Assembly (NCBI GenBank): GCA_033764955.1
Contig: JANRIL010000042.1
Span: forward strand, 96,001-160,000
DNA from: Cyanobacteriota bacterium
GTDB lineage: Bacteria; Cyanobacteriota; Cyanobacteriia; Thermostichales; Thermostichaceae
Length of the DNA: 64,000 nucleotides
Reading direction: 5' to 3'
Part shown: positions 51,151 through 54,123 of the stretch, piece by piece
Layout: every line of letters starts with the position of its first letter
How positions within the stretch are numbered: position 1 is the stretch's first letter
Notes under the pieces: model-generated
The model's input: only the letters and a program-made list of their open reading frames with translations
What the model was told of the DNA's origin: nothing
Databases searched by the model: none
Made by a program: the position numbers and the translations under genes

Positions 51151-52110
51151 ATGAGTTTTGTGAATCAGCCCAACTCCACAGGTGTCCGTTCCTTGCCTAT
51201 TCGCCAATGCCTAGGTCCGGCAGGTGAGACCTGTATAGTAGCCTTGGCTTGGCATGTGGATGGGGAGGCCGGGGTGATCGCGGCAGCCCCAGAAGCAGCT
51301 TGGCACCTAACCGCTCTTTCGGAGGGATCCTACGGGGTTTCCACAGCTCTTCCCCGCATCTTGCAAATGCACCGTGATTTAGGGATCCCTGGGACTTTTT
51401 TTGTGCCGGGGTATGTGGCAGAGCTACATCCACAGGCCGTCGAAGCGATTGTAGCGGATGGCCATGAGGTCGCCCACCACGGTTATCGCCACGAAAACTG
51501 CTTTCCTCTGGATCTCAATGCCCAGCGAGAGATTTTCCAGAAAGGGACAGAGGCGCTCCGTCATCTGATCGGTCGGGATCCCTTGGGTTGGAGCGCGCCG
51601 TGTTGGGGAGTTAACCCCGATACCCTCAATCTGCTTTATGAACTGGGGTTTCGCTACGATTGCAGTTTGATGGAATATGACCGTCCCTATTGGTTGGCTA
51701 TCCCCCAGGGGCATTTGTTGGAGTTGCCCATCAGTATGGTGCTGGATGATTGGGGGATTTTTGGGGGTAGTCCCTACTCCGGTACGGGAGTCAATGGGAC
51801 AGCCGAGTCGGCTTATCAGATTTGGCGGGAAGAATTTGAAGGGATCCACCACTATGGGGGTTTTTTCTCCACCAGCTTTCACCCCAACTTGACGGGGCGA
51901 CCGGGGCGCTTGCGGATGCTATACCGACTGATTGAATATATGCAATCTTTTGAGCGGGTCTGGTGGGCAACCTGCGGCGAAGTCGCTGAGTACATACAAC
52001 ACCACTATCCTGTGGATCCCTCATCTAAAAACTGCGAGAGACTCCCGTCACAGCGCAGGTTGGCGGGAGAGGGAGCAAGTACAATAGATATCACATCATC
52101 TGCGCTATAA
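51151..52110 (+). CDS. Polysaccharide deacetylase family (CE4; PuuE/PgdA-like) hydrolase; last 28 aa derived from IS left end
   Basis: TFFVPG, HEVAHHGYRH, YDCS, ELP, FHP..TGRPGR. Confidence 0.85.
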   Translation: MSFVNQPNSTGVRSLPIRQCLGPAGETCIVALAWHVDGEAGVIAAAPEAAWHLTALSEGSYGVSTALPRILQMHRDLGIPGTFFVPGYVAELHPQAVEAIVADGHEVAHHGYRHENCFPLDLNAQREIFQKGTEALRHLIGRDPLGWSAPCWGVNPDTLNLLYELGFRYDCSLMEYDRPYWLAIPQGHLLELPISMVLDDWGIFGGSPYSGTGVNGTAESAYQIWREEFEGIHHYGGFFSTSFHPNLTGRPGRLRMLYRLIEYMQSFERVWWATCGEVAEYIQHHYPVDPSSKNCERLPSQRRLAGEGASTIDITSSAL

Positions 52111-53407
52111 CGTGAAGCATGACTGAACGCGCTTACCGTTACCGTTTCTACCCCACTGCTGAGCAAGAAAACTTGCTGCGTAGGACATTGGGCTGTGTGC
52201 GGTTGGTGTTCAACAAAGCCTTGGCTCTTCAGACTGAGGCTTGGTATGAACGCCAAGAACGGATGGACTATGTTCCAACTTCGGCAACTCTGACCCAATG
52301 GAAAAAGCAAGAGGATTTGCAGTTTCTCCATGAGGTTAGTTGTGTGCCTTTGCAACAGGGTTTGCGTCACTTGCAAAAGGGCTTTGCCAACTTCTTTGAC
52401 GGGCGCATCCGCTACCCGCGATTCAAGAGAAAGCACAACGGGGGCAGTGCAGAGTTCACCAAATCGGCCTTCAAATACCGTTCGCCGCAGCGGGACGGAG
52501 TCCTTGATGGTCAACTCTATCTGGCCAAGTGCGAGGATCCCCTGCCTGTTGTCTGGAGCCGTGCTTTGCCCGATGGGGTGGATCCCTCGACGGTGACCGT
52601 GAAGCTGGATCCTTCGGGGCGGTGGTTTGTGTCGCTGTTGGTGAATGATCCCACGGTGGAGGCATTGCCTGTTACCGATGGCGCGGTGGGTATTGATGCA
52701 GGATTGACCAGTTTGGTCACGCTCAGCAGTGGAGAGAAAATCTCCAATCTGCGCCACTTTCACAAACATCGCCGCAAGCTCAAGCAGGTTCAGAAGTTCC
52801 TGAGCCGCAAGCAAAAAGGCTCCAAGAACCGAGACAAAGCGCGACACAAAGTGGCACGGCAACACGCCAAAATTGCCGATAGTCGCAAAGATTTCTTGCA
52901 CAAGCTCAGTACCCGATTGGTGCGTGAAAACCAAACCATCGTCGTGGAAGACCTGGCTGTGCAGAACATGGTCAAGAATCACAAGCTGGCCAACTCCATC
53001 GCTGATGCGGGGTGGGGAGAACTGGTGCGGATGCTGGGCTACAAATGCACTTGGTACGGGCGAACGTTGGTCAAGATTGACCGCTGGTTTCCCAGTTCCA
53101 AGCGTTGTGGACATTGTGGGTACATCGTTGCGTCTTTGCCCTTGGACATCCGAGAGTGGGAGTGTTCCCACTGTCAGACTGTGCATGACCGAGATATCAA
53201 TGCTGCCCGCAATATATTGGCCGCTGGACAGGCGGTAACAGTCTGTGGAGCAAACGTAAGACCTGTAGACGGAACGTCGTGCGAAGCTAGGCATGAGTCT
53301 GGAGGGCAGTTGCGTAAAACCCGCAAGGGAAGGAAACAGAAACCTAAGTTGTGAGGCTTGGGAATCTCCCGCCACAGCTCGCAGCGTTTGGCGGGAGAGG
53401 ATGTCAA
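52025..53407 (+). mobile_element. IS200/IS605-family non-autonomous (tnpB-only, IS1341-like) element
   Basis: Left-end hairpin CTCCCGTCA...TGGCGGGAG and right-end hairpin GAAT-CTCCCGCCA...TGGCGGGAG-AGGATG-TCAA; left flank TCAT; removing the element restores a TAA stop; no TSD, no tnpA. Confidence 0.85.
52119..53354 (+). CDS. tnpB: RNA-guided endonuclease TnpB
   Basis: N-terminal YRYRFYPT..Q; RuvC I GIDAG, RuvC II VEDL, Zn finger CGHC/CSHC, RuvC III DRDINAA. Confidence 0.95.
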   Translation: MTERAYRYRFYPTAEQENLLRRTLGCVRLVFNKALALQTEAWYERQERMDYVPTSATLTQWKKQEDLQFLHEVSCVPLQQGLRHLQKGFANFFDGRIRYPRFKRKHNGGSAEFTKSAFKYRSPQRDGVLDGQLYLAKCEDPLPVVWSRALPDGVDPSTVTVKLDPSGRWFVSLLVNDPTVEALPVTDGAVGIDAGLTSLVTLSSGEKISNLRHFHKHRRKLKQVQKFLSRKQKGSKNRDKARHKVARQHAKIADSRKDFLHKLSTRLVRENQTIVVEDLAVQNMVKNHKLANSIADAGWGELVRMLGYKCTWYGRTLVKIDRWFPSSKRCGHCGYIVASLPLDIREWECSHCQTVHDRDINAARNILAAGQAVTVCGANVRPVDGTSCEARHESGGQLRKTRKGRKQKPKL

Positions 53408-53427
53408 AAATTGAGTATTGTAGTTTG
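53230..53427 (+). ncRNA. Putative TnpB omegaRNA/reRNA: scaffold overlapping the tnpB 3' end and right end, guide from flank 53408-53427
   Basis: Established location of TnpB guide RNAs; right-end hairpin and TCAA boundary visible; 5' boundary is a guess. Confidence 0.6.
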
Positions 53428-53451
53428 CCTCTGAAATGGTCACCGCATCCT

Positions 53452-54123
53452 ATGCCGTTGCCTCCTCTCTCGGATTGTCCCGAAAGCTCGTTGGCGGAGC
53501 GAGTCTATACCTCTCTCAAGGAGGCGATTCTTTCCCTACAAGTTCGCCCTAGAGACTATTTGATCATTGGAGATGTGGCAAAAGAATACAGCATCAGTCG
53601 TACCCCTGTGCGGGAGGCGCTCATTCTGCTGGAGCAGGAGGGCTGGGTAGAGAATGAAGGGCGGCGGGGGGCGCGAGTGACGGTGCCGTCTGTGCAGAAG
53701 GTGATGGAGGTGATTGAAATGCAGGCGGTTTTGGAGGGCTATGTTGCCCGTCGAGCCACTCTGATCTGTAGTGAAGCGGATCTGCAAGCCTGGGCCAACA
53801 TTTTGGATCAAGCGGAACGGGCTTGGCGAGAGGGATCCCCACATCTGAGCAGCGACTTGGGGGATCAGTTCCACGAGGCGTTAGCCAATAAGGTAGGCAA
53901 TCAACGTATCGCCAGCCAGATTGTGCAACTGCGGGAGCATATGGATCGGGTGCGCCCCCTGATCTGGAAGGTGGCTAAAGCTCCTCTGGAAGAATCGGCT
54001 CGACAGCATCGGCAGATCTGGCAAGCTATTGCGGATGGGGATCCCTTGAAAGCTGAGCAGTTGATGATGGCTCACACCCTCTGGTTTGAGTCGGAGTTGG
54101 CAGCGGCTCTTGAGCATGTGTGA
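53452..54123 (+). CDS. GntR-family regulator (FCD domain)
   Basis: ISRTPVREAL..LEQEG wHTH; FH..L...GN, QH..I..AI..GD...A...M..H FCD motifs; ATG 53452 lies outside the IS. Confidence 0.92.
   Translation: MPLPPLSDCPESSLAERVYTSLKEAILSLQVRPRDYLIIGDVAKEYSISRTPVREALILLEQEGWVENEGRRGARVTVPSVQKVMEVIEMQAVLEGYVARRATLICSEADLQAWANILDQAERAWREGSPHLSSDLGDQFHEALANKVGNQRIASQIVQLREHMDRVRPLIWKVAKAPLEESARQHRQIWQAIADGDPLKAEQLMMAHTLWFESELAAALEHV

Follow-up and report, generated by a model that had tools for sequence, protein, structure and literature searches.

A probable tnpB-only element of the IS200/IS605 family inserted 3' of TCAT at a deacetylase stop codon in a cyanobacterium of the family Thermostichaceae

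In Deinococcus radiodurans, the insertion element ISDra2 gives rise to an omegaRNA (also termed right-end element RNA or reRNA) from its right end plus the 3' end of tnpB, with a guide taken from the flank; in the part of the ISDra2 study that deals with the nuclease, the transposon-adjacent motif (TAM) is the left-flank target and the target of TnpB is the donor joint (PMC8612924). In Helicobacter pylori, the cleavage sites of IS608 are recognized through base pairing with a guide tetranucleotide at the foot of each hairpin, the left guide (GL) AAAG pairing with the left cleavage site (CL) TTAC and the right guide (GR) GAAT with the right cleavage site (CR) TCAA, as set out in the portion of the IS608 work concerned with target recognition (PMC5934647). 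For ISGst5 and ISGst2 of Geobacillus stearothermophilus, the sections by Meers et al. on TAM usage report that the TAM is the native left-flank motif and that the transposon-encoded motif (TEM) at the right end of ISGst5 is TTCAC versus a TAM of TTCAT, so that the occupied site is not a target (10.1101/2023.03.14.532601). Here we analyzed a window of 64,000 nucleotides (nt) from a genome labelled Cyanobacteriota bacterium (Thermostichales; Thermostichaceae; assembly GCA_033764955.1, contig JANRIL010000042.1, positions 96,001 to 160,000 of the forward strand), in which positions 52025 to 53407 carry a tnpB gene between hairpin-bearing ends. The best explanation of this 1383 bp stretch, taken jointly with the origin and mechanism proposed below, is that it constitutes a non-autonomous insertion element of the IS200/IS605 family of the tnpB-only (IS1341-like) type, and we consider this explanation very probable. 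All coordinates are those of the window, and all features lie on its + strand.

The boundaries of the element were fixed by comparison with other copies, which were drawn from its own genome, from 40 relatives, and from one genome per species. Eight related copies from five genomes have the ends in common and diverge outside them, and a second intact copy (L002), with 86% identity, is present in the same genome. Left ends were readable in eight copies (the window, L002, L004=L041, L027=L040, L068, L048, L008, and L009), all of which have TCAT 16-17 nt upstream of the hairpin foot, GAGA at the foot, and a conserved CTCCGAGAGA running into it; the base 5' of TCAT is variable and the sequence further out is unrelated between copies. 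The eight readable right ends (the window, L002, L004, L027, L005, L011, L008, and L009) all have the form GGAATC-hairpin-GAGGATGTCAA, with flanks that differ from the very next base. As the left and right ends agree across copies, and as many BLAST matches to relatives end at query positions 2207-2208, equivalent to window positions 53406-07, we place the element at 52025-53407, where copy-to-copy similarity starts and stops. The original prediction, made from the letters of the window, had given these same limits; its positions for TCAT, GAGA, both hairpins, GAAT, and TCAA were all found as stated on re-reading, and the alignment of other copies that it had proposed as a check returned agreeing junctions at 8/8 left and 8/8 right ends.

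The anatomy within these limits is that of an IS200/IS605 element. The left cleavage or target site, TCAT (52021..52024), lies in the host flank and is invariant 5' of the eight close copies, in keeping with the earlier proposal that it is the landing motif and hence the predicted TAM. The left guide tetranucleotide GAGA (GL; 52038..52041), situated inside CTCCGAGAGA and conserved in every close copy, directly precedes a left subterminal imperfect palindrome (52042..52069) of the form CTCCCGTC...GGCGGGAG, which has one T/C mismatch and whose arms covary between copies. At the other end, the right guide tetranucleotide GAAT (GR; 53362..53365) directly precedes the right subterminal palindrome (53366..53397), and the right cleavage site TCAA (53404..53407) forms the last four bases of the element; the spacing is 17 nt at the left end and 10 nt at the right. 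Folded as single-stranded DNA, the right hairpin has an energy of -13.3 kcal/mol (z -3.2) that was equalled by 0/200 shuffles, and compensatory changes were found in five of its ten pairs. There are no terminal inverted repeats, and the flanks, ...CCCTCAT and AAATTG..., show no target-site duplication, as expected of insertion 3' of a fixed motif. Just 94 nt lie between the left end and tnpB, and the element encodes no Y1 (HUH) TnpA. A single tnpB between IS605-type ends, with no transposase gene, is the arrangement of the IS1341 group, a label for tnpB-only members that we take to follow ISfinder usage. The element resembles IS608 in its subterminal imperfect palindromes, its insertion 3' of a tetranucleotide without duplication, and its 4-nt guides. 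The right pair, GAAT with TCAA, is identical to that of IS608 (PMC5934647), as had been noted in the original prediction, and the spacing is similar. In contrast, the left pair is GAGA with TCAT here versus AAAG with TTAC in IS608, which moreover encodes tnpA.

The inference of TCAT from GAGA depends on the IS608-style pairing rule, under which guide base 1 is matched to site base 2, guide base 2 to site base 1, and guide base 4 to site base 4, a mapping that fits both IS608 pairs. A scripted guide-plus-hairpin scan of 33 upstream regions, which was kept permissive in that stricter scripts missed many imperfect palindromes, yielded 17 usable regions; 14 were left without a call, one was cut by a contig end, one (L065) was a spurious row, and an extra row for L008 was set aside. 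This revealed that guides of the type GAxA (GAGA or GAAA) occur with TCAT in 11 of 11 usable regions, and guides of the type AAxA (AAAA or AATA) with TTAT in 6 of 6. The independent events are fewer than the rows, since a single metagenome-assembled genome (MAG) accounts for three of the TCAT rows and related Microcoleus genomes for three of those with TTAT. Covariation was also seen at right ends, where GAAT accompanies TCAA in ten cases and GAAG accompanies TCAC in two. The natural covariation of guides and sites at both ends supports the pairing rule on which the earlier reading of the ends had been built, in which the four nucleotides at the foot of the hairpin act as the guide.

The sole gene of the element, tnpB (52119..53354), encodes a protein of 411 residues in which Pfam domains PF12323 (HTH_OrfB_IS605), PF01385 (OrfB_IS605), and PF07282 (Cas12f1-like TNB) were detected. 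The protein scored 362 bits with the NCBIfam model NF040570 (guided_TnpB), well over its cut-off of 100, and 386 bits with NF038281 (IS200_TnpB), under its cut-off of 425. Structures of ISDra2 TnpB (8bf8, 8ex9, 8exa, and 8h1j) match residues 3-370 in an end-to-end alignment (E 1.4e-64), and D193, E277, and D359 of the query align opposite D191, E278, and D361 of ISDra2 TnpB, of which we take E278 and D361 to have catalytic roles; both CxxC pairs align as well. In the ISDra2 study, in the part concerned with mutants, D191 is catalytic and is the residue that was mutated (PMC8612924). The RuvC D/E/D triad and the four zinc cysteines (C330, C333, C349, and C352) are thus intact, as the original prediction had held. 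Among six copies dN/dS (the ratio of nonsynonymous to synonymous divergence) ranges from 0.08 to 0.17, and between the two copies of this genome it is 0.13; tnpB is under purifying selection. The likeness to ISDra2 does not extend to the whole element, as ISDra2 has its own tnpA and a 5-nt TTGAT motif, whereas here there is no tnpA and the motif is TCAT with a variable 5' base. The intact open reading frame (ORF) and catalytic residues, the low dN/dS, and the conserved RNA fold described below together suggest that the gene may encode the active TnpB nuclease that the original prediction had inferred.

A predicted omegaRNA scaffold (53227..53407) shares sequence with both the 3' end of tnpB and the element's right end. 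Across eight copies, conservation is much higher in the last 180 nt than elsewhere in the gene, and the consensus fold of these 180 nt comprises 42 pairs, 17 of which have compensatory changes. Counted on the same alignment from which the structure was predicted, which favours it, 96.1% of cells are paired on the consensus fold versus 35-51% in controls with partners shifted by 1-3 columns, and two-sided changes occur in 18 pairs versus 2-4 in the shifted controls; 0/500 shuffles reach the observed values on four of five measures, and 2/500 do so on the fifth. While one helix of the fold is the right-end hairpin, which is constrained as DNA too, two others (53250-55 with 53309-13 and 53343-50 with 53355-62) contain four and five compensatory pairs, respectively, and have no known role as DNA. 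The conserved fold is what would be expected of an omegaRNA scaffold, and we predict that it is expressed. A promoter scan of 51950-53520 found no sigma-70-like site, and we therefore propose no omegaRNA promoter. In line with the earlier assignment of the guide to the right flank, the ISDra2 rule places the predicted guide part of the omegaRNA (16-20 nt) at 53408..53427, which reads AAATTGAGTATTGTAGTTTG. Neither the 16-mer nor the 20-mer recurs in the genome, and the TCAT-adjacent sites all have more than four mismatches to them, which would leave the empty allele as the sole conceivable target. As a separate observation, both copies in this genome carry an in-frame 21-nt insert at window ~53265-53285 relative to six others, which lengthens the TnpB tail by seven residues and sits in a loop of the predicted fold.

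The element interrupts the end of a polysaccharide deacetylase gene (51151..52110 as now read; Pfam PF01522, E 3e-15), the last 29 codons of which (52024-52110) are supplied by the left end of the element. In the frame from 51151, TCA at 52021-23 is codon 291, and T52024 together with AA at 53408-09 gives TAA; removal of 52025-53407 rebuilds TCA-TAA, and with it the deacetylase stop codon, by arithmetic, as had been claimed. Downstream lies a GntR/FCD regulator gene (53452..54123; Pfam PF00392 and PF07729), the start of which was set by its orthologues in G011 and G013; 44 nt separate the right end of the element from this likely start codon, ATG at 53452. In these same two genomes the deacetylase and GntR genes are adjacent without the element (syntenic, ~73% identical). 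Following the conserved WWATC motif, four deacetylase orthologues (L006, L010, L030, and L007) have 13, 13, 13, and 24 residues, respectively, and the window gene has 16 when restored and 45 when occupied; the spacer from stop to start is 43 nt in G011 versus 42 nt in the restored window. The restored tail and spacer, which fit the orthologues, are consistent with a precise insertion at the stop codon, and the unoccupied allele would be expected to read ...GATCCCTCAT followed by the present right flank.

We propose that the element arrived as single-stranded DNA through a Y1 (HUH) TnpA supplied in trans, and that it would have landed precisely 3' of the TCAT overlapping the deacetylase stop (TCA-T/AA), 44 nt upstream of the GntR/FCD gene. 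TnpA would have recognized the cleavage sites indirectly, through DNA-DNA pairing with the four nucleotides at the hairpin foot, GAGA with TCAT on the left and GAAT with TCAA on the right. Once transcribed from the scaffold region described above, an omegaRNA of ~180 nt would carry a 3' tail from the host flank (AAATTGAGTATTGTAG...). By the mechanism of ISDra2 and the ISGst elements, the TnpB-omegaRNA complex would cut the chromosome copy from which the element had been excised, where TCAT would serve as the TAM next to the guide match, and recombinational repair from an occupied copy would restore the element, a form of homing. The occupied locus would escape cutting, as the guide match there is preceded by TCAA rather than TCAT, and TCAT versus TCAA would be the pair corresponding to the TAM and TEM of ISGst5. 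The comparison has its bounds, as ISGst5 carries IscB rather than TnpB, the TnpB of ISGst2 uses TTTAT, and the ISGst elements were tested experimentally, whereas the present account is drawn from sequence.

Several results weigh against this account. The left hairpin on its own is weak; although the hairpin is the centroid fold, its energy of -7.3 kcal/mol, with a z of -0.73, is matched by 46/200 shuffles. The 14 of 33 upstream regions that were left without a call gave no hairpin under the script rule; by eye, most of them fall in the same two classes as the usable regions, and L052 and L067 are unreadable. A distant element read by eye (L057) has a TAAA guide with TTAT, which misfits the first-position pairing. 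An Rfam scan matched no omegaRNA family, and its two weak matches far under the gathering score (Sernc389 and snoZ173) were taken as chance. The exact empty allele, TCAT followed by AAATTGAG, which the original prediction had suggested seeking in related genomes, was not found among 40 relatives, none of the same genus, nor in two exact-match metagenome scans, in which a 22-nt stretch of the right flank and a 20-nt stretch of the left flank each had 0 matches. The sole syntenic empty sites, ~73% identical, do not read TCATAAATTGAG and are too diverged to test the exact junction. Y1_Tnp (PF01797) has no match in this genome assembly, which is 89% complete and in 48 contigs, and the two copies of the element in the genome are old paralogues, with a synonymous divergence (dS) of 0.46. 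As there is no room for tnpA in the element and no PF01797 in the assembly, we class the element as a non-autonomous tnpB-only member rather than an autonomous IS605; the missing transposase makes present-day transposition doubtful, and the dS between the resident copies gives no sign of recent transposition.

PF01797 was detected in 19 of 22 other genomes of the family (G001-G022), with 1-20 matches each, and two TnpA-bearing IS605 elements among them (L035 in G019 and L097 in G005) have very similar hairpins and a GGGATAGGAG box, with the CTCCCGCC hairpin common to the G019 element and the window element. We considered these two as the transposase partner of the present element; this could not be demonstrated, as their guide and cleavage tetranucleotides differ from those of the element, L035 having TCAC at its right end. 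It is plausible that the group contains a compatible transposase, though none could be demonstrated in this genome.

The age of the resident copies and the lack of a TnpA in the assembly are also what would be seen if the locus were an immobile relic, whose TnpB and omegaRNA are retained for some role, selfish or of use to the host, other than transposition. That role might be homing from one chromosome copy to another in a polyploid cyanobacterium, or an action directed by the guide in the promoter region of the neighbouring GntR gene. Both copies, though old, are intact and show the low dN/dS given above, and the distance from the right end to the GntR start is 44 nt, which would suit such a function. 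However, the assembly is incomplete and insertion sequence (IS) copies are often missing from assemblies, tnpB-only elements without a resident TnpA are common, and the ends are fully IS-like with intact guides and cleavage sites. The catalytic residues are likewise intact, unlike those of known nuclease-dead regulatory TnpB derivatives, and the genome offers the guide no second target. On balance we regard a relic as unlikely, and favour a non-autonomous element of the IS200/IS605 family as set out above.

This genome contains a highly iterated palindrome, GGGATCCC, in 4915 copies versus 81 for CCCTAGGG. In both copies of the element in the genome, GGATCCC (52014-52020 in the window) lies 0-2 nt 5' of TCAT, a placement shared by 161 of 27827 TCAT sites; the association concerns two copies, was noticed post hoc, and is not seen in other genomes, where copies do not lie beside the palindrome. 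That a tnpB-only lineage kept under purifying selection without a detectable Y1 transposase, with both copies beside a GGGATCCC-type palindrome, has a special cause is a proposition to which we give little credence. If it were true, TnpB-omegaRNA might persist by homing alone, for instance among the multiple chromosome copies of the cyanobacterium, or, alternatively, iterated palindromes might form preferred single-strand landing sites for this element family. The same position of GGATCCC in both copies, together with a match of 212 bits to the IS607_TnpB model, might suggest that GGATCCC belongs to the element or that the element is of the IS607 (serine recombinase) type, a reading that we rejected as very improbable, as the window GGATCCC is host coding sequence (V-D-P of the deacetylase tail, with the preceding Y-P conserved in orthologues), GGGATCCC is a genome-wide repeat, copies in other genomes have no GGATCCC beside TCAT, the IS607_TnpB score falls short of the cut-off of that model (350) and of the score with IS200_TnpB, and the ends show the hairpin-plus-guide anatomy of Y1 elements.

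Other observations were made on the copies and relatives of the element. L011 (G015:C10) is an internally deleted derivative in which the part proximal to the left end is joined to the last ~250 nt, with most of tnpB gone; the retained segment comprises the omegaRNA region and the right end. A related element has left another right end, in convergent orientation (GAATC-hairpin-GAGGATGTCAA, minus strand), at ~2794-2957 of L027, ~160 nt past the right end of the G005 copy. Occurrences of GAGGATGTCA in the genome number 18 versus 3 for the reversed control, and these were examined as candidate solo right ends or miniature derivatives; the full context of a right end is present at the two known copies alone, so no family of miniature derivatives was detected. 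TnpB relatives with 67% and 81% identity (L048 and L042, respectively) lie on contigs of MAGs labelled Tatlockia and Patescibacteria, a placement that may be due either to transfer or to mis-binning, and at its left end L048 shares TCAT and GAGA with the window element. The TNB domain of TnpB has ten matches in this genome, from several subfamilies and with some broken or at contig ends, and the other TnpB genes considered (L088, L089, and L092) belong to other subfamilies and are uninformative on target choice. The stretch upstream of tnpB (52085-52118) contains a TATAAC/TATAAT box, 10-16 nt from the ATG and within a small inverted repeat (TCACAT...ATGTGA type), and the box is kept in most of the related elements compared. 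Its position suggests a promoter so near the ATG that the tnpB mRNA would have almost no leader.

The original prediction had also described the host as a probable thermophile. The IVYWREL fraction is 0.402 over 2172 long ORFs, which by a regression reportedly due to Zeldovich et al. 2007 corresponds to ~42 C; this crude estimate from proteome composition, the sole result bearing on the claim, does not establish a thermophile. In the literature searched, no paper contained both 'TnpB' and 'TCAT' as whole words, although supplementary TAM tables of large TnpB screens may list TCAT, and none contained both 'TnpB' and 'Thermosynechococcus'.

Taken together, our analysis points to a textbook-style tnpB-only element of the IS200/IS605 family whose proposed mechanism is already published, and its wider biological significance is accordingly small. 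Its value is that of a clean worked example: comparison with other copies fixes its ends, its target motif, and its guide, and covariation in cyanobacterial elements backs the IS608 rule in nature. It also yields the prediction of a short, 4-nt TAM (TCAT) for a nuclease of 411 residues. As the predicted TAM and the element's own end, TCAA, differ solely at the base adjoining the target, discrimination of self from non-self by this nuclease would rest on that one position.

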